From assembly GCA_016194725.1 (NCBI GenBank), contig JACQAW010000342.1, forward strand, positions 1 to 56,666: a stretch of 56,666 nt of DNA, given 5' to 3'. Source of the DNA: Deltaproteobacteria bacterium. Its GTDB lineage: Bacteria; Bdellovibrionota; UBA1018; UBA923. Below are positions 1 through 29,556 of the stretch, piece by piece. A program made the position numbers and the translations under genes. Below the pieces are notes generated by a model. That model was not told the DNA's origin. It saw only the letters and a program-made list of their open reading frames with translations, and ran no database searches. Position 1 is the stretch's first letter, and each line of letters starts with the position of its first letter.

Positions 1-517
1 CGGAATCAAAAACCCATGGGTGGCCAAGTGCGTCAAGACCGTCTATATCCAGGTCATGACCAACAACTCGCTCAAGGCGGGTATCGAGATTCCGTTCACC
101 ACCGCGTTGGCCAAGGAGTTCGAGAGCGGGGGCAAGGTGCGAGTGGTGGGCGACGAAAAAGAAGCTGATGCCATCGTCAAAGGCACGATTGCCTCATTCA
201 CCTCTGAGTTCAACCCATCGGGCTTGACCAGCGTTTCGTCGATTTCAAACTCGCTCGACGCGCAGGCGCTCAGTGACATGGTGGTGGCTTCGGAATACAT
301 CGCCACGGCCAACATTACCGTGCAGTTGATCAAACGCGATGGCCCCGTGCTGTGGACGCAAACTTTCTCGCGCCCCAAGGTTTACCCCGCGGGCAACCGC
401 TTCGGTTTGCAGGGCACGACCTCGGCGCTGATCGACGCCCCGGTGGAACAGCTGGCGCTGGTGGATATCGCGGGCTTCATTGCCAGCGATGTGCACGACA
501 CGATGTATGTTTGGTGA
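1..517 (+). CDS. lptE: LPS-assembly lipoprotein LptE-like, 5' end outside window
   Basis: The reading frame is open from base 2, and the ORF track lists 20..517. The alternating hydrophobic beta pattern (KTVYIQVMTNNS..., EADAIVKGTI...) and the position directly upstream of holA fit the conserved lptE-holA arrangement. No signal peptide lies inside the window. Confidence 0.5.
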   Translation, partial: GIKNPWVAKCVKTVYIQVMTNNSLKAGIEIPFTTALAKEFESGGKVRVVGDEKEADAIVKGTIASFTSEFNPSGLTSVSSISNSLDAQALSDMVVASEYIATANITVQLIKRDGPVLWTQTFSRPKVYPAGNRFGLQGTTSALIDAPVEQLALVDIAGFIASDVHDTMYVW

Positions 518-1361
518 CGAGCAAAATTTGACCTTTTGCGTGGACCGCATCGATGGCGCCACGGCCACGGGCAGTGACGTGCTTGAGGCAATTCAAAGCA
601 TGGGTCTTTTTGGAGGCGCCTCCGATGATCGGCGGCGGCTGGTGATTGTCCGCGAGGCCCAGCTTCTCAAAGAGCTTGATCCACTTGCGGACGCCGCGAT
701 GAACGCGGGAAAAGGCGCCAGTCCCTGGGGCGACAGCCTGCTTTTGCTCGTGGCGGAAAGTATCGACGGACGCCGCAAATTTCATCAGTGGCTGAAAAAG
801 CACGATCTGACGTTGGAGTTCAAACCCGCGCGCGATGCCGAGCTTGCGCAGTGGGTGGCCTATCTGACCAGGAAATGCGGTGCGAAGGTCGACGCCCAGG
901 CGGCCCAGATGCTGGCCGTGATGTCTGACGGTAGCCTGTATCGGCTGGCGCAGGAGATCGAAAAGGCGTGGCTGTATGCCGGCGGCACCGCCGGCGCCGA
1001 AATCACGGCCGAGCATATTTCGATGATCAGCACGAGCCAGATTACCCATGAAATGATCGAGCTGGTCCGCGCCGTGCTCGAAGGCAAACGCACGCGCGGC
1101 CTGCTGCTGAGCGAGAAGCTTATTCGTGCGCCCGAAGACGCGCTGGGGCTGGTTGGTTTTCTGACCTGGGCCATCAAAAACCCAGGCCGCGGTTTTACCG
1201 GAAACATCGCGGGCGGCGCCGGGCGCGCACGCAAGATGGTGCATGCTCTGGTGGAGCTGGATTTTCGTTTGAAGAGCTCGGGGCTGGATGCGAATGCTTT
1301 GGTGGAGCAGTTTGTTATTGAACAGACGGCGCTGTGTCTCCGGTCTGAATCTGCGACCTGA
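507..1361 (+). CDS. holA: DNA polymerase III subunit delta (HolA)
   Basis: ORF 480..1361. The ATG at 507 overlaps the lptE stop (TGA 515-517). SMGLFGG..RRLVIVREAQ, LTLEFKPARDAEL.QWV and LYRLAQEIEKAWLY resemble HolA domains I-III. The N-terminus is about 30 aa shorter than E. coli HolA, so the start is uncertain (480-507). Confidence 0.7.
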   Translation: MFGDEQNLTFCVDRIDGATATGSDVLEAIQSMGLFGGASDDRRRLVIVREAQLLKELDPLADAAMNAGKGASPWGDSLLLLVAESIDGRRKFHQWLKKHDLTLEFKPARDAELAQWVAYLTRKCGAKVDAQAAQMLAVMSDGSLYRLAQEIEKAWLYAGGTAGAEITAEHISMISTSQITHEMIELVRAVLEGKRTRGLLLSEKLIRAPEDALGLVGFLTWAIKNPGRGFTGNIAGGAGRARKMVHALVELDFRLKSSGLDANALVEQFVIEQTALCLRSESAT

Positions 1362-7646: not shown

Positions 7647-8420
7647 ATGGCGTCCTGGTATCTGGGCATAAATAACAAGTCTGTCGGGCCGCTCACGCGC
7701 GAGGATGTGCTGGCGCGTTTGCGCAGCGGGAATATTCCGCTCACCACCCTGGCGTGGCGCGAGGGGATGAAGAGCTGGGAGCCGCTCTCGAAAACCGAGC
7801 TGGCCCAGGCCGACGAGCCGGCGGTGCTGCCCCTGACCGCTGGCCAATACGGGGGCGTTTCAGTCGCGCCCGCCGTCCAGCCCGAGTTCGGCAGAGCGGA
7901 CGTGGCTTGCTACGCCGGTTTTGGGATTCGCGCCGTGGCTATGGCCGTCGACGGCGTGCTGTACGTTACTTTTGGCACGATGCTGGCCATCTGTTTTGGA
8001 ATTTTTCTGGGCTTTGCCATGTCGCTTCGCGGTTTTGAACCCGAGCGGATTTCAAGGGTGGCCAACGTCTTTGGCTTTTTTCTGAGTCTGGGCTTTGGAA
8101 TTTTCTACTATGGAATTTTGCAGGGCGTGCTGGGTGGCTCGCCGGGCAAATTGATCGTGGGTCTGCGGCTGGTGCGAGCTGACCTTGGACCCGTGACGGT
8201 TTGGCGCGCGCTGGCCCGCTATTTCGCGTTTCTCTTTGCGCTGGCACCCATGGGGCTGGGTCTGCTGTTTCTTGGCTTTCACCCCCGCAAGCAGGGGCTG
8301 CACGATCTGCTGGCCGGCACGGCGGTGGTGACGCGTGAGGGATTGGCTGCGATTAATAAATTGAACGCGGAATTACCCGCCGCCATCGGCACCGACGAGG
8401 CCATTAAAAAAGCTGCCTGA
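7647..8420 (+). CDS. GYF_2 (DUF4339)-RDD family membrane protein
   Basis: The N-terminal segment WYLGINNKSVGPLTREDV...WREGMKSWEPL is a GYF_2-type module. The C-terminal part has 3 TM helices with RDD-like features (GIRAVAMAVDGVLY...GLHDLLAGTAVV). Confidence 0.65.
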   Translation: MASWYLGINNKSVGPLTREDVLARLRSGNIPLTTLAWREGMKSWEPLSKTELAQADEPAVLPLTAGQYGGVSVAPAVQPEFGRADVACYAGFGIRAVAMAVDGVLYVTFGTMLAICFGIFLGFAMSLRGFEPERISRVANVFGFFLSLGFGIFYYGILQGVLGGSPGKLIVGLRLVRADLGPVTVWRALARYFAFLFALAPMGLGLLFLGFHPRKQGLHDLLAGTAVVTREGLAAINKLNAELPAAIGTDEAIKKAA

Positions 8421-9359: not shown

Positions 9360-9416
9360 ATCCAAGGACACGGGGTTGCAGCAGCTTTAAAACTTGCGGT
9401 GAATACGGAGATTCAA

Positions 9417-9896
9417 ATGAAAATGAGATTCGGTTTATTGGCAGCAGTGATCGCATTGGGTTACGTGTCGGGCGCGCATGCCGCGACTTCAGGGTCGGTG
9501 ACGATTCAAGGTACGGTGCCGACGGTGGTGGCCATTACGGTAACGGGTATCGCGCCATTCAATGCGCTGGACCTGACCACGACCCAAGCCAACTTGCCTG
9601 TTGCCGACGTCGTCGAGCAAAGCAATGACTCTCTGGGCTACAAGGTGACGATGAGCTCGACGAACGCCGGCTCGCTCAAGAACGGCTCACTGGGAAGCGT
9701 GGCCTACACGGCAAAGTACAACGGTACGACGGTCACGCTTAGCGCTACGCCTCAGCAAGTCACCAGCACCGGATCGACAACCGCTGTGGTGAACGCGACC
9801 AAGTCGCTGACGATTTCGTACACGGGAGCGGCTTCGGCGTCGTTGATGTCAGGTACGTACAGCGACACGCTGACGTTTACGATCGCCGCGAACTAG
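9417..9896 (+). CDS. SCPU (spore coat protein U)/Csu-type fimbrial subunit
   Basis: ORF 9399..9896. The likely ATG at 9417 follows GGAG. Signal peptide ...GYVSGAHA, an N-terminal donor-strand-like SGSVTIQGTVPTVVAITV, and a C-terminal GTYSDTLTFTIAAN signature. It lies next to a chaperone-usher locus. Confidence 0.7.
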   Translation: MKMRFGLLAAVIALGYVSGAHAATSGSVTIQGTVPTVVAITVTGIAPFNALDLTTTQANLPVADVVEQSNDSLGYKVTMSSTNAGSLKNGSLGSVAYTAKYNGTTVTLSATPQQVTSTGSTTAVVNATKSLTISYTGAASASLMSGTYSDTLTFTIAAN

Positions 9897-9899
9897 CCT

Positions 9900-10853
9900 C
9901 TACTCGGTAGTGGCTACGGTGACGGTGATGTTGTCGGAGTAGTTGCCGGCTATCTCGTCTTTGAGCGACCCGATGGTGATCGAGACCGGATTGACGGTTC
10001 CACTGGTTGTGGTTTGCCCGCTGCCCGTTGCAACCACCACCGGCCCGTTGGTCAGATTTTGAAATGCGGAGTTGACAGTCACCGCATAGGGAATCGTGGT
10101 TCGCACGTCCGGCGAGGTATGACGAAGCACGCCCTGGTTTTGCGAGGCGAACGTGACGGAAAATCCGGCGTTGGTGAGAATGCGGATGTCGAACGTGCGA
10201 ACGGCGTTCTCGGTCAGCGTACCGAAATCCAGCGATTGGGCCGTGGAGTTGGGGTCAAACCCCGCGCCCGTGCACACCAGCGAAAGCTGCACGTTGCGCG
10301 GTACTTCGGTCGACAACGAGACGCCCGCGGTCTGATCGGGCCCCGATAGCCCGCTGCTGGCGGTGCCGTTGAAAACGCTCACGACGTAACTGTCGAGGTA
10401 CGTGCCCGCCAGCTTCAGGCGCGGCGAAGTAGCCAGATTGTATGGGATCTGCAAAAAATAAGTCAGCGACTGCGATTGGTTGGCGCCGGTTCCAAAACTT
10501 CCGGTGATGGCATCGTTGGCGCTGGTAACGTCTGGCGCGTCTTTTAGAATATTGGTCAGCGAGGATTCCTTGTAGAGCTGGTAGTTCAGAGTGCTCGCGC
10601 CTGAGGTCATACGTCGGTTGTAGTCGCCCGCACCGCCCTTGGAAAACGTGACAACGAAATCGCAGGCATCGGTTTTCTGCTTGGTCACCGTGAAGTTGAT
10701 CTGCTGCGTGGGCAACGACGTGTTCCAGACCAGATTGACGTTGCTGACGTTCAGGCCCAGATGGCAGTTTCCGCCGAAAGCCGGTGCTGCGGCAAGCAGC
10801 AGGGCCAGTGTCGTGAGCGGCGCGATGATTCCTGGTTTTTCAATTCCCGTCAT
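9900..10853 (-). CDS. Two-domain SCPU fimbrial protein (CsuE-like tip or adhesin candidate)
   Basis: ORF 9900..10946. The likely ATG at 10853 lies 8 nt after the usher stop. Signal peptide present. Two tandem SCPU-like halves end in GTYLDSYVVSVF and GNYSDNITVTVATTE. Confidence 0.65.
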   Translation of the reverse strand: MTGIEKPGIIAPLTTLALLLAAAPAFGGNCHLGLNVSNVNLVWNTSLPTQQINFTVTKQKTDACDFVVTFSKGGAGDYNRRMTSGASTLNYQLYKESSLTNILKDAPDVTSANDAITGSFGTGANQSQSLTYFLQIPYNLATSPRLKLAGTYLDSYVVSVFNGTASSGLSGPDQTAGVSLSTEVPRNVQLSLVCTGAGFDPNSTAQSLDFGTLTENAVRTFDIRILTNAGFSVTFASQNQGVLRHTSPDVRTTIPYAVTVNSAFQNLTNGPVVVATGSGQTTTSGTVNPVSITIGSLKDEIAGNYSDNITVTVATTE

Positions 10854-10861
10854 ACCTGGTC

Positions 10862-13135
10862 CTATCTTAGCGGACGTGCAGTCAGACTGCCAATATCGTA
10901 AACACCCAACGCGGTATCCGGAATGGAAAATTCCAGGAGCGCCCATTTTTCGCTGAAAAATCGCAGTACATAGGTGCCGGGCTTGAAGCCCTCGACGCGA
11001 AACTTGCCCTTGCGGTTCGTAAATACGACGATCGGCTTGGCATTGGGGTCGCCTTTGAGCAGCGCTTCACCCGATTCCAGGGCAATGGGGACGTGACTGG
11101 CGTTGAACAGCACGCCCGCCAGCATGATTGCCGCGTCGGTGCCCGCGCGAATCAGCACTCCGCTTTTGTAGTCAGGCAGCAGCGCGTAATTTTCCTCGCC
11201 CAGCTCGAGTCCAGGCGGCAGGCGTGAAGGATCGAGATACAGGTGATAGTACTGGTAAGAGCGTATGTTGGACACGACGGCCGGGCCCAGGCAGTCGGCG
11301 CGCGAGTCGTAATATTCGTTGCTGTTGGGATTGACGTCGATGGTTTGCCCTTTGAGATGCTCGGCCACCGCCACGATGGCGAACGCGTCGGTGATGGGGC
11401 GTCCGATGGCGAACCGGCCCCCCGCAAAAGCAACCGAGGTGCCGGCCCTGAGATTTGTGGTCTGCTGCTGGTAGCCGGCATAGTTGGTCGTTAGATTGTG
11501 TGAGGCGCCCAGTGTGCCGCGGTTGCCCGTGTAATCGAGCGAGGCATCGGTTCGGTTGGCATCGGGTGCGCGTTCGAAAGAGGCACCCGCGCTGTAGCCG
11601 CCGACAAGCTGGGGTGAGTTGTAGTGCCATTCCACGCGCTGGGCCTTGCGCGCGGTATCTTCGCTGGCGGTGACGAAGTGGTTGCTTTCGGGCATGACCC
11701 AGGAGAGCAGAAAAAACAGGTCATTTTCACTCTGATCGGTCTGCGAGCGGCGGTGGGTCAGCGTGAGGCTGGCCTGCATGCCGCTCTTCCACGACTTCAC
11801 CAGCGCAAGCGAGCCCAGATAGTCGTTCACGGTGCCGGGGCCGCGGTTGAAGTCGTAGGTGCCGCTCAGGCGGGCATTGACCTCGGGCAGTACGGTTTGG
11901 CTATAGCCCGCCGTGAGATTGACGGCGGGAATCACGTTAGGCGCGATTGCATCGAAATCGGTGAGCTCGGCGAAATGCGCATCTTTGTATTCGACGCCAA
12001 AAAGCAGATTGCGTTGGGTGAAGCGAGGGCCGTTGTAATCGGTGTAGTTGTAGCGCAGCCGCCCGGCCAGCGCGCTCTTGTAGCCCGAAAGATGTCCGAT
12101 CGTGGGCTCAAGGCCCAGCGTGCCCCAGCGGTGGGCCTCGGTGACTTCGACGCCGCCCACGAGCTGCCGGTGATCGCCCTGGTAGTTCGCGCCCACGGTG
12201 AGCGTGTCGCTCAGTCCGTAGCGGTGAAAGATGGATACGGTAGGCAGGCTTGAGTTGTAGTCGCGGTGGTTGCCCACCTGGGTGGAAGGAAAGCCCACGC
12301 TGTAGGCCAGCTGATGTAGGCCCTTGGTGAGCAAATCCGCATCGGATACCCAGGGAAAGTTGAGCACTTCGACGCGGCCCACGTCGTCGGTGATCTCGAG
12401 GCGCACGAAGTTGATGCCGTTGCCCAAGGCCAGGCTCTTCAAATCCTGACGCCCGGCAGGTAGATAAAGAACCTGTGACTGAAAGCCATTGATGAAGACG
12501 ACGACCCGGGAAGGCGTTTTGAGAAAAATTTCGTTGCTGCTGAGCGGAATCGTAACCCGGTACGGCTGCAGCGTGAAGTTGCTGGCAAAAGTAAAGCCCG
12601 CCATGGGGCGAAAGTGCTGGTAGGTGCTGATGGGATAGCTGAGATCGCCGGCGGCGTATCGGATCGTGTGTGCGGGGTCGTCTTTGACCAGCCGTACGTC
12701 GCCGCGCGTGAAGGTGTGGTCTTGCTGGCTGGTATAATTCGAAGCCGCTTCGATGACCCACGATTTATAGTTCAAGGCGCCGTCCAGGTCGCTGCGAAAC
12801 GGGCGTCGTCCATCGGTTCCGTCGTTGTGGTGAAAGTTGAAGTCCTCGCCCACGCGCGTGTTCACGAAGCCGCTGAATGGGCTGGGCGCGAGCGCTTCGC
12901 CGATCTGGGGTGGAATTCCGCGGCCACTCAGATACACCAGATTGGTCTTGCGGATATCGGGTGGGACCTCGATACGCAGCTCGAGCGTGCTTTCGTCGAA
13001 TTTTGGCTTGAGCCCCACCGAAGTCAGGGCATCGGCGGCAAGTAAGCGTTCGCCCGTGCGGGGGTCGGCCACGAGATGCGCTGAAAGCTGATTGATGCGA
13101 TCGGCGCTGATCCAGTCTTTAAGATACTCGAGCAT
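10862..13135 (-). CDS. Fimbrial outer-membrane usher (body; signal peptide encoded in another frame upstream)
   Basis: 757-aa beta-rich ORF positioned between the chaperone and the tip subunit, with size and context typical of FimD/PapC-type ushers. It has no signal peptide of its own. The frame stays open upstream to a TAA inside the T10/A10 tract. Confidence 0.75.
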   Translation of the reverse strand: MLEYLKDWISADRINQLSAHLVADPRTGERLLAADALTSVGLKPKFDESTLELRIEVPPDIRKTNLVYLSGRGIPPQIGEALAPSPFSGFVNTRVGEDFNFHHNDGTDGRRPFRSDLDGALNYKSWVIEAASNYTSQQDHTFTRGDVRLVKDDPAHTIRYAAGDLSYPISTYQHFRPMAGFTFASNFTLQPYRVTIPLSSNEIFLKTPSRVVVFINGFQSQVLYLPAGRQDLKSLALGNGINFVRLEITDDVGRVEVLNFPWVSDADLLTKGLHQLAYSVGFPSTQVGNHRDYNSSLPTVSIFHRYGLSDTLTVGANYQGDHRQLVGGVEVTEAHRWGTLGLEPTIGHLSGYKSALAGRLRYNYTDYNGPRFTQRNLLFGVEYKDAHFAELTDFDAIAPNVIPAVNLTAGYSQTVLPEVNARLSGTYDFNRGPGTVNDYLGSLALVKSWKSGMQASLTLTHRRSQTDQSENDLFFLLSWVMPESNHFVTASEDTARKAQRVEWHYNSPQLVGGYSAGASFERAPDANRTDASLDYTGNRGTLGASHNLTTNYAGYQQQTTNLRAGTSVAFAGGRFAIGRPITDAFAIVAVAEHLKGQTIDVNPNSNEYYDSRADCLGPAVVSNIRSYQYYHLYLDPSRLPPGLELGEENYALLPDYKSGVLIRAGTDAAIMLAGVLFNASHVPIALESGEALLKGDPNAKPIVVFTNRKGKFRVEGFKPGTYVLRFFSEKWALLEFSIPDTALGVYDIGSLTARPLR

Positions 13136-13227
13136 CGCGGGCCCCTGAACCTTGAAGACATTTCGATCGGCTGAAGGAAAAATGAAAAGCTCGCCGCTCG
13201 GACGGTTTTCGATGAGAACCGGAACGA

Positions 13228-13371
13228 TTACCCGAGGGCTATCCGGCTTTTTTTTTTACTGAAGGCATTCCGAAAGGGGTCCTCGGCCGGTGGCGCGGTC
13301 AGCGCCAACACCGGCGTAAAGCAGAGCAACGCGCACGTCGCGAGGAGATGAGCGTTATTTTTTAATCTCAA
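13228..13371 (-). pseudogene. 5' fragment of the usher gene (signal peptide), out of frame with the usher body
   Basis: My own translation gives TTG(13371) RLKNNAHLLATCALLCFTPVLALTAPPAEDPFRNAFSKKK SRIALG*. The start overlaps the end of the chaperone gene. It joins the usher frame if the A-run has 11 or 8 residues instead of 10. Confidence 0.6.
13248..13257. repeat. T10 (A10 on the coding strand) homopolymer at the usher frame break
   Basis: Counted directly in ggcTTTTTTTTTTact. Confidence 0.9.
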
Positions 13372-14080
13372 GTTCCGCTTTCGACTTCAAGTTTTCGGCA
13401 GTGAGCTGCGCGGGCCAGGCAATTTCAAAGCGACGCTCGCCCCCCGCAAGCAGGTTCAGGCCGCTCAATGCCTTGGTGTCTTCGTCCTTGAGCTCGACGG
13501 AACCAATCCTGATCCTGGCCGAGTTGATGATCTGGTGGGCTGTGCCCAGATTGCCGACCGTGACGGCGAGCTTGTTTTTCACGTGCTCGAGCCTGATGAC
13601 CTCGATACGCGGCGAAGAGCCGCGCGGCGTAATGTATACCGCGCCCATGTAACGCAAAAGCATGCGAATGACGGCCTGGTCTTTTTTGTCGGGCTTATGC
13701 GTGTCGACCGGCAGCTGTTCGGCGATGATGCGGAAGGCGAGCTCTTTATCGGGTTTGGCATTACCGGCCCAGGTTACGCGCACGGTTCGTTTTTCGTTAC
13801 CGCCGAGGACGATTTGCGACGGATAAACGACGAAGTCATCGTCGGCGTCGGGGTTTTTTTCGACGCCCGCGGCGTTGACCTCGCGCGCGGCCATGGAAAC
13901 CTGGATCGCGAGCTTTTCGCCGCTGTTGTTATCTATCGTGAACGAGCGCGTGGCCCCCTTTCCATTTGGATCGAGCGAAACGGACATCGGGGCCAGGGAA
14001 AACGCGTGCGCGCTGGCGGCAGCCAGGAGCAGCAGGGGAAAAAACGCGATGCACGTCACGCGGGTGTTTTGAGCCGGCAC
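13355..14080 (-). CDS. Fimbrial periplasmic chaperone (PapD-like)
   Basis: Signal peptide ...AAASAHA. FSLAPMSVSLDPNGKGATRSFTIDNNSGEKLAIQVS and the later VVYPSQIVLGGNEKRTVRV fit the Ig-like chaperone fold pattern. Confidence 0.8.
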   Translation of the reverse strand: MPAQNTRVTCIAFFPLLLLAAASAHAFSLAPMSVSLDPNGKGATRSFTIDNNSGEKLAIQVSMAAREVNAAGVEKNPDADDDFVVYPSQIVLGGNEKRTVRVTWAGNAKPDKELAFRIIAEQLPVDTHKPDKKDQAVIRMLLRYMGAVYITPRGSSPRIEVIRLEHVKNKLAVTVGNLGTAHQIINSARIRIGSVELKDEDTKALSGLNLLAGGERRFEIAWPAQLTAENLKSKAELEIKK

Positions 14081-14115: not shown

Positions 14116-14631
14116 CTAATCTGCCGCGACGGAAAAGGTGATCGTATCGGTGTAGGTTCCGCGCGCGATTTTGGCCAGCTGGTCGGGAGTTTTGGTGACG
14201 AGATGAATTTTGAGAACGTGCACGGTACGGGTGCCGCCCGCGCGGAATCCGGCTTCAACCGTCCTGGGCCCGTTGGCCAGGTCCACGCTCGAGGTGTTGT
14301 AGGTCAGCGCGTAAGCCGGACCGGTTTCGCCCGCCCCTTTCAGGAGGCCGCTGTTTTTCGAGCCAATCGTGACCTGGAAGACGCCTGGTGCGTTATTGAC
14401 TTCGATGATGCGGGCCAGCTCGATATCCTCGTTGGCGGCCGCAAGCTCGGCGGCGGGTGAGCGGCCGTTGAGGGCATCGGTATCCACGATGGTCAGCGAG
14501 TGCAGCTCGGGTACGAAGCCAATGAGCGTCAGGCTGCCGTTGCTGGCGGCAATCGCGGCGGCGGCAGTAGCAATGGCCAGAACCACGAGGATGGAGAATG
14601 TTCCGAAAAATAATTTCTCACGCACGGTCAT
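14116..14631 (-). CDS. SCPU/Csu-type major fimbrial subunit
   Basis: ORF 14116..14649. Candidate starts are TTG 14649, ATG 14631 and GTG 14625. Signal peptide, donor-strand-like NGSLTLIGFVPELHSLTIV, and a C-terminal GTYTDTITFSVAAD. Confidence 0.7.
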   Translation of the reverse strand: MTVREKLFFGTFSILVVLAIATAAAAIAASNGSLTLIGFVPELHSLTIVDTDALNGRSPAAELAAANEDIELARIIEVNNAPGVFQVTIGSKNSGLLKGAGETGPAYALTYNTSSVDLANGPRTVEAGFRAGGTRTVHVLKIHLVTKTPDQLAKIARGTYTDTITFSVAAD

Positions 14632-14713
14632 GCCTTGCTGTATCGGCAATTTTGGCTGGTTTCTTGAGTTGGAAGCGCCAGGCCTGTGTGCGCGCTACAC
14701 TACCCAGGGGTGC

Positions 14714-16081
14714 CTACGGAATCGCGAGCTGGGAATTCGGGGCGAAGTCGTGCAGGCCGGGCTGGCCAATGTCGTAGTAGGTGCGGGTCGTGTAAGAATT
14801 CGGATCGGTGTAGTAGGTCACGACGGCTGCGAGCTTGGTGGGCAGGTTCATCACGTTCCAGAAGGTGGCTCCAAAACCCTGCGACCAGTATTCCGGATAG
14901 AGCGCACTGCTATAAAAGCTGGGCAGCTGCGTGGCCCGCATCCAGTTGCCCAGGATGCCCTGTGCGTACACCTGGTAGGTCACCATGCTGAACAGGGGAT
15001 CTTCGCGCGATTCGGTAAAGGTGGAAAGGCTCAGGTTGCGGCGCAAGGGATCGAAGAATACTTTCAAGCGGTAGTCGGCATACTGCACCTGCGCGTTATT
15101 GGTGGCGGGGGGCTTGGACCAGCCCGAGTGAATCACCAGCGCCTGTGTCGAAAAGATGCGATGATACGCAAAGCTGACGTGGCCGTAGCCGGCGGTGCCC
15201 CAGGCGGTGCCCCAGGAGTTCTTGATCAGAAAGCCGGTATCATCGTAACCGACGATCTCGACGGCGTGACCAGCCCATTCGTCCTGAGGCGAGAATTTTA
15301 CGAGCAGGATGTTTCCGCTTTCCTCCAAGGTCGGGTAGTCGGCGCGCAGGATCGCAATCGCCAGAGGCATGCGCACCACGCCCGTGGGCAGCCGGATCTC
15401 GACCAGCACGTGCTGGTCGAGGTCGATATTTCCGCGGGCCGACGGGTCGTTCCACTGCGAGGACTGAATAAGGTAACTCACGGGAATCGAACGCACCCAG
15501 TGGCCGGCGCGCCGGTCTTCGAGCGCGGCTTTGAGGACCTCGGGGTTTTGCACCTGGGGATAGTGAATCACCTCGGTGTCCGCGCCGATATGGTATTTTC
15601 CATAGGGCGTAGTGCGCAGAATTTCATTGTCGGTCACGCGCGCCTGGCAAAGAAAATCGAGCTGCGGCGAGGCGCCCGAAAAATGCGAGGTCACGGCACA
15701 GGCCAGATTCTGCTCGGGCGGCAGGCCGTCGTAAGGCATGAAACGTTCCGACGGAATGCCGTAGTTCTGCAGCACCGGAACATAATGTTCGAGCGCTTCG
15801 CCAGCGGTCACGAACCCGTTTTTCGGGCGCACGCCCAGGGTCAGAAAAGTTTTAACGTTCTGCTCGAGCTCGGTTTTTTTCATCACCGCATACAGGTACT
15901 GCGTGCTGAGCTGAGTGGGCATGCCGGGCATGGCTTCCATGGCGCCGGCTACTGCAAAAGCGGTGCACGTGCCGCGCCCAAGCTGGTTGCGCACGGGTGA
16001 CTGAAAGTCGCGGTTGTCGACGTTGGCCTGGGCCAGGCTGGCAAAAAGCGCGGCGGTGAATATCAGAGCAAGGGCCTTCAT
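14714..16081 (-). CDS. Papain-family (C1) cysteine peptidase with an unknown ~200-aa C-terminal domain, secreted
   Basis: Signal peptide present. Gln/Cys motif NQLGRGTCTAFAVAGA, His motif GHAVEIVGYD, and Asn motif IKNSWGTAWG. Confidence 0.8.
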   Translation of the reverse strand: MKALALIFTAALFASLAQANVDNRDFQSPVRNQLGRGTCTAFAVAGAMEAMPGMPTQLSTQYLYAVMKKTELEQNVKTFLTLGVRPKNGFVTAGEALEHYVPVLQNYGIPSERFMPYDGLPPEQNLACAVTSHFSGASPQLDFLCQARVTDNEILRTTPYGKYHIGADTEVIHYPQVQNPEVLKAALEDRRAGHWVRSIPVSYLIQSSQWNDPSARGNIDLDQHVLVEIRLPTGVVRMPLAIAILRADYPTLEESGNILLVKFSPQDEWAGHAVEIVGYDDTGFLIKNSWGTAWGTAGYGHVSFAYHRIFSTQALVIHSGWSKPPATNNAQVQYADYRLKVFFDPLRRNLSLSTFTESREDPLFSMVTYQVYAQGILGNWMRATQLPSFYSSALYPEYWSQGFGATFWNVMNLPTKLAAVVTYYTDPNSYTTRTYYDIGQPGLHDFAPNSQLAIP

Positions 16082-16132: not shown

Positions 16133-16774
16133 TTAATATTCCGATGGTTTGGCTGGGCTTAGGCAACAGCGAAACCCGGCTTCGTAGGTTCTGAACTTGC
16201 CTGGATGCGCCGGATTCACGAAGGCGCAGCTGGGGGGGGCGCCACCATAGCAGCCCGCCCAGTAGCAACCTTTGAGCACGTGCGCGAAATTATTGCGGTT
16301 GGGAAACGAGCGCGACACCCATTCCGCAGCGTTCCCCGTAAGGTCGTGGATTCCGTCTTGCGATACGCAGCCCGGGCGTGAGCCGCTGGGATCGGCCTGG
16401 TAAAGGCGCTCCACCTCGAGCTTGCCCTCGTGAGCGGGGTACTTCGCGATTTTCCCCCAGTTGGGCATGCGCCACTCCTTGTCGTCGTTGCAGACGCCCT
16501 TTTTGTAGCGGTTTCCATAGGGATATTTGCGGCCGGCTTCGCCTTGGCAGGCGCGCACCCATTCGGCTTCGCTGCACAGGCGTTTGCCGCGCGCCGAACA
16601 CCACTGCTCGCCCTCGGTGGCCCGGGCCGCGGTAATGGGGTTGACGCCGGCCTCGTTGGGCGCCTCAAAACGGTCCATGCAAAACCCTGCAACGGCCCCC
16701 ATGTCGTCGGGGCAATGCAGGGGCCCTGTGGGGGCAGCAAGGGCTACGGTAAACAACAGTAGTGCGGGCATCAT
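16133..16774 (-). CDS. Formylglycine-generating-enzyme (FGE/SUMF1) family protein, secreted
   Basis: ORF 16133..16879. The likely start is the ATG at 16774 or 16804, ahead of the signal peptide MMPALLLFTVALAAP. FCMDRFE, YPYGN, DLTGNAAEWV and GFRCC are FGE-sulfatase family features. Confidence 0.7.
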   Translation of the reverse strand: MMPALLLFTVALAAPTGPLHCPDDMGAVAGFCMDRFEAPNEAGVNPITAARATEGEQWCSARGKRLCSEAEWVRACQGEAGRKYPYGNRYKKGVCNDDKEWRMPNWGKIAKYPAHEGKLEVERLYQADPSGSRPGCVSQDGIHDLTGNAAEWVSRSFPNRNNFAHVLKGCYWAGCYGGAPPSCAFVNPAHPGKFRTYEAGFRCCLSPAKPSEY

Positions 16775-16847
16775 GGTTGCACCCGATAGCACAGTCGGCA
16801 GCATCTGCCTATCCAGCGGGGGCTGGGCGGTTACGAAGAGTATAGAG

Positions 16848-17756
16848 ATGAGTCTTGCCATCAAACTCGTAAACGTCACCCGGTCCTACGGCTCCAACCT
16901 GGCCTTGCGCGGAGTCTCGCTCGAGTTGGAGGCCGGAAACTTTTATATTCTTTTGGGTAAAAACGGGGCGGGCAAGTCGACCCTCATGCGGCTGCTCATG
17001 CGTTACGAGATGCCCGATACCGGCAGCGGAACGGTGCTGGGTCAGCCCATCGACAGCGAAAGCGACGCGTTCAACCTCGAGATCGGCTACGTGTCGGAGT
17101 CGCTCGATTATCACCTGCCGTTGCGCATGAACAAGCTCTTCTCATATTTCGCGGAAATATATCCGCGCTGGGACCGCGCGATTTTCGAAGGCATGCTGCG
17201 CGAGCTGCGCATCGATCTCAATAAACATTTCCGAGAACTTTCGCGCGGCCAGAAAATGCAGGTCGCATTTGCCGCCGCGGCGGCCATTCAGCCCAAGCTG
17301 CTCATCCTGGACGAAATCACGGCCGTGCTGGACGCCAACGCCCGCGCGTTTTTCATGGACTATCTGGGCCGCTTCACCCGCCAGGGCGGCACCGTGGTCA
17401 TGGCCACCAATATCGTGAGTGAGGTGCAGAACTACGCCAACCACATGATCCTGATGCATGACGGCCTCGTGAGCCTGGATGTGCCGGTGCGCGACTTGTC
17501 CAAGCTGTTTCTGAAGATTCGCCGCGCCCAGAACGAGCCGCATCCGATTTTCAACACCACCGATTGCGTCGAGGTGGCTTTGAACTCCGACGGTTCCACG
17601 TCGCACATCGTAAGTCGCGAGCTCTCGCAGAAGTTCGAGGTGCCTGAACGGCTGCACGACTATCGAGGCATCACGGCCGAGGAAATTTTCATCTACTTCA
17701 CGCGCGGGGGGTTTCACGACCAGCACCACTTCCTCGGTGAGGTAGACGTTGCATAG
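16848..17756 (+). CDS. ABC transporter ATP-binding protein
   Basis: ORF 16527..17756. The ATG at 16848 gives MSLAIKLVNVTRSYG. Walker A GKNGAGKST, signature LSRGQKMQV, and Walker B LLILDE. Confidence 0.9.
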   Translation: MSLAIKLVNVTRSYGSNLALRGVSLELEAGNFYILLGKNGAGKSTLMRLLMRYEMPDTGSGTVLGQPIDSESDAFNLEIGYVSESLDYHLPLRMNKLFSYFAEIYPRWDRAIFEGMLRELRIDLNKHFRELSRGQKMQVAFAAAAAIQPKLLILDEITAVLDANARAFFMDYLGRFTRQGGTVVMATNIVSEVQNYANHMILMHDGLVSLDVPVRDLSKLFLKIRRAQNEPHPIFNTTDCVEVALNSDGSTSHIVSRELSQKFEVPERLHDYRGITAEEIFIYFTRGGFHDQHHFLGEVDVA

Positions 17757-20265: not shown

Positions 20266-20889
20266 ATGACTTTGCGGAACTTTGTCTTGGCCTTATCCCT
20301 GGTTTTTGGTCTGAGCCACGCGGCTTTGGCCAACAGCACTGATGATCCCTGTGCCGGTATCCGGCTGGGGTTTCATGAGTCGATTGCGGGACAGGGTTTT
20401 TTGGGAGTTCTGACTCCGAAAACCAGTGCGAATCTGGTGCGCCGGGCGCTTGAACGCAATATCGAGCTTGCCAAGCCCGGACCCCAAAACGAAATTTTTA
20501 CGAGCACTCCCGTCGCGTTTGACTGGGCGGCGGTTTGCAAGTTTGCCAAAGCCCGGAACCTCGGCGTTCTGTGGGTGGGCTGCCATGCGGATACCGAGGA
20601 AGATTCGGGCGAGTATTACGGCAGCCTGGCCACCTCGAAGGACAAGGTGGGGCTGATTAAAGCCGAATGCGTGGTTTCGACCTGGAACAGCTCCAAAAAA
20701 CCCAGCTGGTCCAAGCTGGTCGACACCGCTCTTTTTCATTCGGGCGGGGACCAGAAGACGATTTATCCCCGTGAATCCGAATCCGATGGCGACCGCTACG
20801 ACCAGCTGAAAAAAGAAGACGTCAGGCTTGAGTTGTATGTTCAGTCGCTCAACCACAGCGTCGAGCTTTTCAACTACGACCAGAGATAA
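20266..20889 (+). CDS. Hypothetical secreted protein
   Basis: Signal peptide MTLRNFVLALSLVFGLSHAALA. No family recognised. Confidence 0.5.
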   Translation: MTLRNFVLALSLVFGLSHAALANSTDDPCAGIRLGFHESIAGQGFLGVLTPKTSANLVRRALERNIELAKPGPQNEIFTSTPVAFDWAAVCKFAKARNLGVLWVGCHADTEEDSGEYYGSLATSKDKVGLIKAECVVSTWNSSKKPSWSKLVDTALFHSGGDQKTIYPRESESDGDRYDQLKKEDVRLELYVQSLNHSVELFNYDQR

Positions 20890-29403: not shown

Positions 29404-29489
29404 GCCGGGGTGGCGGAATTGGTAGACGCACAGGACTTAAAATCCTGGGCCTGGAAACGGGCGTATGAGTTCGATTCTCATCCTCGGCA
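29404..29489 (+). tRNA. tRNA-Leu (anticodon UAA), class II with long variable arm; CCA encoded at 29490-29492
   Basis: Acceptor stem GCCGGGG/CCTCGGC, anticodon stem-loop CAGGA-CTTAAAA-TCCTG, variable arm GGCCTGGAAACGGGC, and T-arm ATGAG-TTCGATT-CTCAT. Confidence 0.9.
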
Positions 29490-29556
29490 CCATTTTATGA
29501 GTTCTATTTTTGGTCTAAAAACGTAAACGAACGTAATTAAACAATGAGTTTTCCCT
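29467..29556 (+). repeat. Direct repeat copy 1 (attL-like): tRNA T-arm and 3' end plus about 65 nt downstream
   Basis: Aligns with 37402-37496. The core ATGAGTTCTATTTTTGGTCTAAAAA differs from the second copy by one T. Confidence 0.7.

Follow-up and report, generated by a model that had tools for sequence, protein, structure and literature searches.

The 56,666-nt stretch of DNA analysed here (hereafter the window) carries on its minus strand an operon for a chaperone-usher pilus, and the gene of the outer membrane usher in this operon is divided between two reading frames at a run of ten A residues. The signal peptide is encoded in one frame and the mature usher in the other. The features at this junction are as follows.

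13248..13257, minus strand: putative slippery tract, A10 in the mRNA sense and T10 on the plus strand
13228..13371, minus strand: zero-frame open reading frame (ORF) of 47 codons, starting with TTG and encoding a Sec signal peptide plus the N-terminal tail of the mature protein
13303..13371, minus strand: predicted Sec signal peptide MRLKNNAHLLATCALLCFTPVLA, assigned by inspection; the n-region is basic, the h-region hydrophobic, and the cleavage motif V-L-A
13261..13281, minus strand: tail motif D-P-F-x-x-A-F (DPFRNAF in the window), directly preceding the tract-encoded Lys cluster (KKK)
10862..13255, minus strand: usher body of 797 codons in the -1 frame, open from within the tract (KKKPDSPRVIVPVLIENRPSGELFIF...), with its stop at 10862-10864
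13145..13231, minus strand: first three strands (beta1-beta3; residues 9-37 of the model) of the N-terminal domain of the usher, ahead of the annotated start, ATG 13135

The TTG at 13371 is located 12-14 nt before the stop codon of the chaperone gene (13355-13357), within the final chaperone codons (..ELEIKK, then stop), and opens the signal peptide MRLKNNAHLLATCALLCFTPVLA followed by LTAPPAEDPFRNAFSKKK. The minus-strand letters around the run are ...GCC TTC AGT AAA AAA AAA AGC CGG ATA GCC CTC GGG TAA. The zero frame reads the tract as AGT AAA AAA AAA AGC, which holds the heptamer A_AAA_AAA, continues for six unconserved codons (SRIALG) and stops at 13228-13230; its complete product is MRLKNNAHLLATCALLCFTPVLA joined to LTAPPAEDPFRNAFSKKKSRIALG. 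In the -1 frame the tract is read as TAA AAA AAA AAG CCG, where the TAA arises from the T preceding the run. As encoded, the signal peptide is not continuous with the mature usher, and continuity is reached only after one extra A or a -1 slip. By computation, A11 instead of A10 gives a continuous fused ORF of 836 amino acids, the needed change being -1, equal to one extra A. The public annotation (P0001, 'fimbrial biogenesis outer membrane usher protein', 757 amino acids) starts at the internal ATG at 13135, without signal peptide. The original prediction, made from the sequence of the window alone, had described this arrangement correctly: a 757-residue ORF lacking a signal peptide, a signal peptide opened by the TTG across the end of the chaperone gene, termination of its frame six codons past the T10, an usher frame open from inside the tract, and fusion of the two frames by a tract of A11 or A8, by a -1 slip or by one A added to the RNA.

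The protein is a bona fide usher of an SCPU-type ('archaic', sigma) chaperone-usher system, as judged from its Pfam domains and from an AlphaFold2 model that matched full-length FimD and PapC. The repaired usher matched the Pfam family Usher (PF00577) with 48.8 bits against a gathering cut-off of 27.1 (E = 6.5e-13, profile positions 4-535 of 549). The model of the usher frame (predicted local distance difference test, pLDDT, 82.3; predicted template modelling score, pTM, 0.68) contained an N-terminal domain, a barrel with plug and C-terminal domains, and its full-length Foldseek matches included FimD (3rfz, E = 2e-34, template modelling (TM) score 0.61), 9bog, 6e14 and PapC (7lhh). When the family profile was searched against PDB sequences, nothing matched. 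The original label of 'archaic SCPU-type usher' is thus supported by domains, model and fold search.

At the start of the usher, the model placed strands at residues 9-15, 18-27 and 34-37, with a block-mean pLDDT of about 86-90 over residues 11-40. These three strands are encoded upstream of ATG 13135, so the database protein is without export signal and also without part of a folded domain. The internal ATG was rejected as the true start, since it removes strands beta1-beta3 and gives no signal peptide. Re-initiation past the zero-frame stop was rejected as well: start codons exist there in some loci (for example, a GTG overlapping the TGA in L003, one of the relatives described below), and the product would have neither signal peptide nor strand beta1. 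In the model, the tract-encoded Lys cluster falls in an unstructured N-terminal tail just ahead of beta1, where a varying number of Lys residues should be tolerable.

The T10/A10 run is the longest homopolymer of the window. By composition, however, an A9 or A10 in 56.7 kb is unremarkable: dinucleotide-shuffled versions contained 1.02 A9 matches on average, and at least two were present in 26 of 100. The meaning of the run therefore depends on its position and its conservation among relatives, not on its mere presence.

Relatives were sought in a protein collection of 5.8 billion clusters, in a genome collection and in JGI metagenomes, and the DNA was recovered for the matches. The chaperone-usher junction was readable in 29 loci, of which nine bear the tract and are out of frame, 19 are in frame, and one (L033) is out of frame without a run. 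The scan of genome contigs yielded only L001, and a second search of the 5.8 billion clusters with an eight-sequence profile found no new proteins. An exhaustive HMMER search of representatives returned 991 of them at E <= 1e-30, with the clade collapsed to one representative. The nine tract-bearing loci are separate metagenome records from at least four assembly pipelines: an NCBI contig of a metagenome-assembled genome (MAG) for the window, a MEGAHIT k141 contig (L001), four different SRA runs in Logan (L003-L006), an ENA k141 contig (L007), a JGI metagenome (L018) and a GenBank whole-genome shotgun record (L019). The source records include SRR31724269, SRR28285719, SRR33270662, SRR22105554, ERZ27297509, JGI Ga0209988 and SMUY01. 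The organisms are uncultured and carry NCBI labels such as 'Deltaproteobacteria bacterium' and 'Bdellovibrionota'. L001 to L007 share 52-84% amino acid identity with the window, and L018 and L019 form a second clade at about 30%. The runs in the nine loci are:

window: A10
L001: A10
L005: A10
L003: A9
L004: A9
L007: A9
L006: A12
L018: A9
L019: A9

Two side observations concern the collected records. The 5.3-kb contig of L001 (JBBRLF010000349.1) is filed under a 'candidate division WWE3' MAG despite 84% protein identity to the window operon; for a Gram-negative outer-membrane system, this filing is probably a binning error. Two related usher calls, P0021 and P0022 (Logan contigs, 574 amino acids), end early with odd basic C-terminal tails (..FFFSSRRPFQKPISTLRQ..), which suggests a second, different mid-gene frameshift or a contig problem.

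In all nine tract-bearing loci, our comparison placed the run at the same codon position and the usher body in frame -1 with respect to the signal peptide. Adding one A gave an uninterrupted ORF of 819-875 amino acids in every case, and all nine repaired ORFs begin with a signal peptide equivalent to MRLKNNAHLLATCALLCFTPVLA. The zero-frame layout of the window is repeated in the eight other loci, where the frame stops 3-21 codons past the run (range over all loci) and its tail is unconserved. The tail motif, in the form D-[PL]-[FY]-x-x-[AV]-F, is kept in the out-of-frame loci and in in-frame relatives. The -1 offset is unchanged although the tract length (9, 10 or 12) and the following linker (up to two codons longer in L003) vary. 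This result indicates that the out-of-frame relation itself is conserved. The original prediction had left a phase switch, a slippage site and an assembly error unranked, had suggested comparing the tract length in orthologous loci, and had held that a split without any homopolymer in orthologues would mark a fixed pseudogene. The comparison gave the same -1 split with a pure A9-A12 in nine of nine tract-bearing loci, which is not the pseudogene pattern; the orthologues favour the slippage site, the nine separate records speak strongly against a one-off assembly error, and the phase switch is weakened.

The same records bear directly on a sequencing or assembly artefact, in which the true genomes would have A(n+1) with an intact usher and the homopolymer would be under-called by one base in every assembly. 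Long homopolymers are classic sites of indel errors, all of our sequences are metagenome assemblies, and the frame break of L033 at this junction, without a slippery run, is unexplained. Still, the artefact would need a one-base under-call in the same direction in nine separate records, at least four pipelines and three tract lengths, and the record names of L001 and L007 (k141) indicate MEGAHIT, taken as short-read. Within the window, 19 of the 27 other runs of 7-8 bases are spanned by intact long open frames. For seven unspanned runs the neighbouring open frames were listed, and no two long frames of the same strand abut at a run. An assembly with general homopolymer errors was rejected on these grounds. 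We consider the artefact very unlikely; even if it were true, a conserved pure in-frame A10-A13 over saturated synonymous divergence would itself be a selected slippery element.

Substitution patterns were calculated for each half of the gene in its own frame. Synonymous divergence (dS) between the window and its closest relative L001 was about 1.0, already near saturation, and against L003 and L006 it was saturated. The ratio of nonsynonymous to synonymous divergence (dN/dS) was 0.12-0.20 for the usher (0.12 versus L001) and 0.09-0.39 for the signal-peptide frame. About 790 downstream codons stay open in nine lineages over a dS range of 0.12 to >2, and no secondary frameshifts or stops have accumulated. 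Judged by these ratios, both halves are under purifying selection. It has to be asked whether the gene is nevertheless a decaying pseudogene, killed by a one-base deletion in the Lys-codon run within an operon that no longer functions. The gene is formally disrupted, the database annotates it from an internal ATG, and L018 compared with the in-frame L017 resembles a 1-nt deletion. A decaying gene, however, is not expected to show low dN/dS in both frames; the signal-peptide frame is conserved too, and the chaperone and flanking subunit ORFs are intact where inspected (window, L001, L003-L007 and L018). The sequence comparison has effectively refuted the pseudogene.

The run itself is conserved beyond the protein that it encodes. 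In a DNA alignment of the seven members of the first clade, the mean column identity was 61%, and the sole stretch of nine invariant columns was the A9 core. In five of the seven clade loci, only about 45-50% of Lys codons are AAA (66-78% in L006 and L007), and the three to four consecutive Lys codons at the site are all AAA in every out-of-frame lineage. The chance of an all-AAA cluster in all seven clade loci is about 1e-6 if the lineages are treated as independent. Among the in-frame relatives, 18 of 19 have A-runs of at most 8 or no run; for L002, L031 and L032, which belong to this group, the gene call simply began at a start further downstream. Relatives that are in frame and similar in G+C (L017, L020, L035 and L036) write the Lys cluster in mixed codons, as the following in-frame clusters show.

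L017: AAG AAA AAA AAT
L020: CAA AAA AAG
L021: AAG AGA AAA
L035: AAG AAG AAA AAA
L036: AAG AAG AAA AAG

The origin of the split can be proposed from the same relatives. Among the HMMER representatives, the tail F-x-x-x-F with KKK(K)(K) after it is widespread and as a rule in frame, and numerous distant members of the family encode in frame a looser form, hydrophobic-x-x-[AVI]-F plus KKK(K)(K). As a feature of the protein, the Lys cluster is therefore ancestral, and it was the raw material of the run. L018 is exactly 1 nt shorter than the in-frame L017 across the site, and the repaired L018 (AFGKKK-ESST-QLLTVP) aligns gap-free to L017 (AFGKKK-NNVS-QLLTVP). The simplest history suggested by these sequences would be a 1-nt deletion within an A-rich Lys cluster, followed by purifying selection that keeps the run pure because the run rescues expression.

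Purity of the tract would also be expected from selection for mutability, as in classical phase variation. Here the A-run would gain or lose a base in replication, cells with A(n+1) would be piliated (ON), and the assembled A(n) would be the majority OFF genotype. Runs of A9-A12 are hypermutable in DNA, lineages differ in tract length (9, 10 and 12), and a surface-organelle gene with a simple repeat inside its ORF is a typical target (PMC3711429). The distribution of states argues the other way. Nine of nine populations are in the same one of two OFF frames and none is ON, which has a chance of about (1/3)^9 with equal state frequencies and of about 0.04 even if 70% of populations were in this state. 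Both close pairs are identical in length (window and L001 with A10, L018 and L019 with A9), and length changes between lineages keep the frame relation, unlike free switching. No in-frame (ON) allele of any tract-bearing lineage, and no longer variant, was found among the proteins of the 5.8 billion clusters. We regard phase variation as an unlikely explanation of the locus, and occasional DNA-level switching of the hypermutable run may go alongside recoding.

Taken together, our results favour the reading that the poly-A run, at the junction of signal peptide and mature usher, is a conserved recoding site that depends on slippage, and that expression of the usher relies on slippage, mainly transcriptional (probability roughly 0.6). 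The out-of-frame genotype would then be the functional one, expressed via slippage. Standard decoding from the weak TTG would give only a 47-residue product, consisting of the signal peptide, about 18 tail residues and 6 unconserved residues. Two routes could lead past the break. RNA polymerase would add one non-templated A (A10 to A11; A8 or A14 would also suit), or the ribosome would slip -1 on A_AAA_AAA. Both routes would give the identical export-competent usher of 836 amino acids (...AFSKKKKPDSPRVIVPV...), with ...NAFSKKKKPDSPR as the trans-frame peptide of the slipped product.

Which of the two enzymes slips was considered separately. With a ribosomal -1 programmed frameshift as the main route, a tRNA-Lys pair would slip back on the heptamer. 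All nine loci have an X_XXY_YYZ heptamer in zero-frame phase (A_AAA_AAA in the seven-member clade, A_AAA_AAG in L018 and L019), -1 is the canonical direction, and A_AAA_AAG is tied to high frameshifting efficiency in E. coli (PMC4066793). Stimulators were looked for around the site. RNAalifold on the tract plus 90 nt gave 0 pairs, hence no conserved downstream hairpin or pseudoknot; in single-sequence folds of the 60 nt downstream in eight loci, seven z-scores lay between -1.1 and +1.3, not better than shuffles, and that of L018 was marginal (-2.06). Inspection by eye of the 15-25 aligned nt upstream showed no Shine-Dalgarno-like (GGAGG-like) motif. In the window, the Rfam gathering scan matched only a tRNA and no other known RNA family. 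Some proven frameshift sites, such as that of IS1, work without stimulators, and their absence lowers the case for ribosomal frameshifting but does not exclude it. All out-of-frame tracts have at least 9 A's where seven would be enough, and no out-of-frame lineage has A7 or A8; long A-runs, moreover, slip during transcription anyway. Since A9-A11 are lengths with demonstrated transcriptional slippage, these tract lengths and the missing conserved stimulator make polymerase slippage more likely than a ribosomal slip, as far as the sequences tell. The ribosomal slip as the main route seems rather improbable.

Several points weigh against the recoding reading. First, slippage itself, the slipping enzyme, its efficiency and the stoichiometric purpose discussed below are inferred from comparison. 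Second, the nine loci trace back to just two independent origins (one for the clade of seven, one for the pair), and the count of nine is meaningful only against models with a fast re-randomising state. Third, a long run is not exclusive to out-of-frame ushers: L034 (Logan ERR14822404, 39% G+C) has an in-frame A9 at 612-629 (AAA AAG AAA AAA AAA). With this AT-rich locus, the idea that in-frame relatives never reach A9 was dropped; the in-frame A9 of L034 could itself cause slippage losses. Fourth, in the distant L033 (P0017, 32% identity; ENA ERZ924444, soil, k127_150451), signal peptide and usher body are -1 apart at 2385-2420 without homopolymer or slippery heptamer (GACGAGGGCGCGAGAAGCTTTTC). 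This singleton could be a pseudogene, an assembly error or something else, and it tells us that plain frameshifts or errors do occur at this junction. Fifth, the choice of polymerase over ribosome is weakly supported, as A_AAA_AAA and A_AAA_AAG (L018 and L019) are also good -1 heptamers. Finally, the hypermutable A10 could additionally switch at the DNA level.

The possible role of such a site depends on the genes around it. The other genes of the operon are:

14116..14649, minus strand: probable major pilin subunit, first operon gene, secreted, 177 amino acids, assigned by position and size
13355..14080, minus strand: PapD-like periplasmic chaperone (Pfam PapD_N, E = 1.6e-9)
9900..10853, minus strand: SCPU-domain subunit, candidate tip/adhesin (Pfam SCPU PF05229, E = 1.4e-10), directly downstream of the usher

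The first gene had no Pfam match at E <= 0.01; its positional counterpart in L001 (ORF 246..761) can be aligned to it by eye from end to end. The overlap of the usher start with the chaperone end is, to judge from the sequence, a layout suited to translational coupling, and the overlapping start codon in L001-L007 is TTG in six loci and ATG in L006. For the SCPU gene, the mechanical ORF begins at ATG 10946, which gives an 85-nt overlap with the end of the usher. The 7-nt gap in L001 points to ATG 10853, 8 nt after the usher stop, as the probable real start, with a signal peptide that begins MTGIEKPGIIAPLTTLALLLAAAPAFG. The SCPU domain was seen in this 9900-10946 ORF, and two small subunit-like ORFs of the window had no Pfam match. 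An SCPU gene also follows the usher in L001, L003-L007, L031-L033, L035 and L036, and the gene order chaperone-usher-SCPU is repeated in 10 or more related loci.

Other genes near the operon were observed along the way. A secreted pilin-like ORF of 165 amino acids at 9399-9896 (plus strand), without Pfam match, lies just past the SCPU gene and convergent to the operon, and a gene of 159-176 amino acids has the same place and orientation in L003-L007 and L032. Some neighbour genes recur beside the operon in relatives (in the window, 7647-8420 on the plus strand, and 14714-16081 and 16133-16879 on the minus strand). A GYF_2 and RDD membrane protein stands beside the operon in the window and in L004, a gene of the FGE-sulfatase family lies upstream in L003, and a secreted papain-family (Peptidase_C1) protein precedes the operon in the window. 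ARAGORN placed tRNA-Gln(TTG) and tRNA-Leu(TAA) at 20365-20447 and 29404-29492 (plus strand), of which the Rfam gathering scan gives only tRNA-Leu. In L018, a perfect hairpin (GGCGCATCTCAA...TTGAGATGCGCC) followed by T9 is found at 1476-1542, between the major-subunit gene (970-1461), which it follows directly, and the next genes of the operon. It is terminator- or attenuator-like and could be another stoichiometry device within a pilus operon.

One pilus has one usher, one tip and very many rod subunits. The run stands at the boundary between the 'many-copy' genes (subunit and chaperone) and the 'single-copy' genes (usher and SCPU subunit). We propose that it acts as a fixed throttle, which would hold the usher far below the major subunit and the chaperone encoded upstream. 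The weak TTG within the last codons of the chaperone and the required slip would both lower usher output. Most ribosomes would end six codons past the run and leave the 2.4-kb usher message largely untranslated; the untranslated mRNA would probably cause polarity and lower the downstream SCPU tip subunit too. A throttle at codons 39-42 would cost just a 47-residue peptide.

The unslipped product may also have a use. The released peptide LTAPPAEDPFRNAFSKKKSRIALG carries the family-wide F-x-x-x-F-KKK tail motif of the usher N-terminus, and in FimD-type ushers the N-terminal tail region docks chaperone-subunit complexes. The run might then be a two-output device: unslipped decoding would free a periplasmic peptide of about 24 residues, which would compete with or prime chaperone-subunit complexes, and the ratio of peptide to usher, set by polymerase slippage and possibly responsive to growth rate or nucleoside triphosphate pools, would tune pilus number and, via polarity, the supply of tip adhesin. 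This extension is a long shot. If true, it would give chaperone-usher pili a new regulatory logic and provide the first recoding module with the export signal in one frame and the cargo in another.

Literature searches combining usher, chaperone-usher and fimbrial terms with slippage, realignment, frameshifting and homopolymeric tract gave no relevant report of recoding, and the GeneTack survey of conserved frame transitions does not mention ushers. To our knowledge, no frameshift or slippage site is known in csuD. The mechanism class itself is well known; what is distinctive here is a recoding site that divides an export signal from its cargo.

The nearest precedent is tssM1 of the Citrobacter rodentium type VI secretion system (T6SS), in which about 20% of products regain the frame through extra non-templated A's at an A11 (Gueguen et al. 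2014, PMC4256274); the tssM arrangement is also found in Yersinia pseudotuberculosis (PMC4256274). As at the usher, the structural gene of an envelope-spanning secretion machine is broken at an A-run with no nearby stimulator, an absence used there for the same argument as ours, and the arrangement is conserved in a second genus. In contrast, the tssM1 site is near the 3' end and both the short and the long product are needed, whereas the usher site is at codons 39-42 and its zero-frame product is a signal peptide with a short tail, for which a two-product logic is not evident. The machines differ as well (T6SS versus chaperone-usher), and the usher case is known here from sequence alone. In the Shigella flexneri type III secretion system (T3SS), transcriptional slippage occurs in spa13, with a yield of 25-30% (PMC5009743), and in mxiE (PMC5009743, PMC1088944), and polarity on downstream expression has been reported for spa13/spa32 and mxiE (PMC5009743). 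There, too, slippage joins two overlapping ORFs into a functional longer protein. The mxiE run consists of U's in the mRNA and the usher run of A's; mxiE and spa13 belong to the plasmid-borne virulence regulon of one genus, whereas the usher site divides an export signal from the mature protein.

The Thermus thermophilus dnaX gene undergoes transcriptional slippage at an A9 (PMC1088944), and dnaX is an example of one outcome reached by slippage of either the polymerase or the ribosome (PMC1088944, PMC3711429). Its slippery sequences are identical to those of the usher loci (A9, and A_AAA_AAG as in L018 and L019). The slipped dnaX product, however, is the shorter one, at a ratio of about 1:1, and E. 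coli dnaX has strong Shine-Dalgarno and hairpin stimulators, unlike the usher site. According to work cited in PMC5009743, one-base indels in poly(A) runs of essential genes of insect endosymbionts are offset by polymerase infidelity, with 12-50% of transcripts corrected. L017 compared with L018 points to the same origin, by loss of 1 nt from a Lys run. Endosymbiont genomes are AT-rich and drift-dominated, and their cases are scattered over many genes; the usher genomes have 42-60% G+C, the state is kept across deep divergence, and in each locus examined the usher tract is the sole within-gene A/T run of at least 9.

Simple repeats also control pilus production in fimbrial phase variation. The Haemophilus hif promoter varies through a TA-repeat. 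The Bordetella fim promoter does so through a poly-C tract (PMC10172299). In those systems the tracts lie in promoters or subunit genes, with ON and OFF lengths coexisting among isolates, whereas the usher tract is inside the ORF and was seen in a single out-of-frame state. The operon resembles other archaic chaperone-usher pili, a group to which the SCPU (Mcu) systems of Myxococcus belong. With Acinetobacter Csu it shares pilin(s), a PapD-like chaperone, an usher of FimD/PapC fold and an SCPU subunit (PMC9452303, PMC4654587), and it differs in that the usher clade comes from uncultured bacteria labelled Deltaproteobacteria or Bdellovibrionota.

These results also concern how such genes are recorded. 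Annotation pipelines call these ushers from internal starts (757, 724, 789 amino acids and others), leaving out the signal peptide and strands beta1-beta3 of the N-terminal domain, and recoding-aware annotation is needed for them. The pure A9, A10 and A12 runs, set against in-frame relatives with mixed codons, offer a natural system for slippage in uncultured Bdellovibrionota-like bacteria. Chaperone-usher is the most widespread route of pilus assembly in Gram-negative bacteria. If the site is confirmed, this pathway would join the T3SS of Shigella and the T6SS of Citrobacter and Yersinia as a machine that uses conserved slippage, and stoichiometry would be set compactly within one operon, with the subunit and chaperone before the run and the usher and tip subunit after it.

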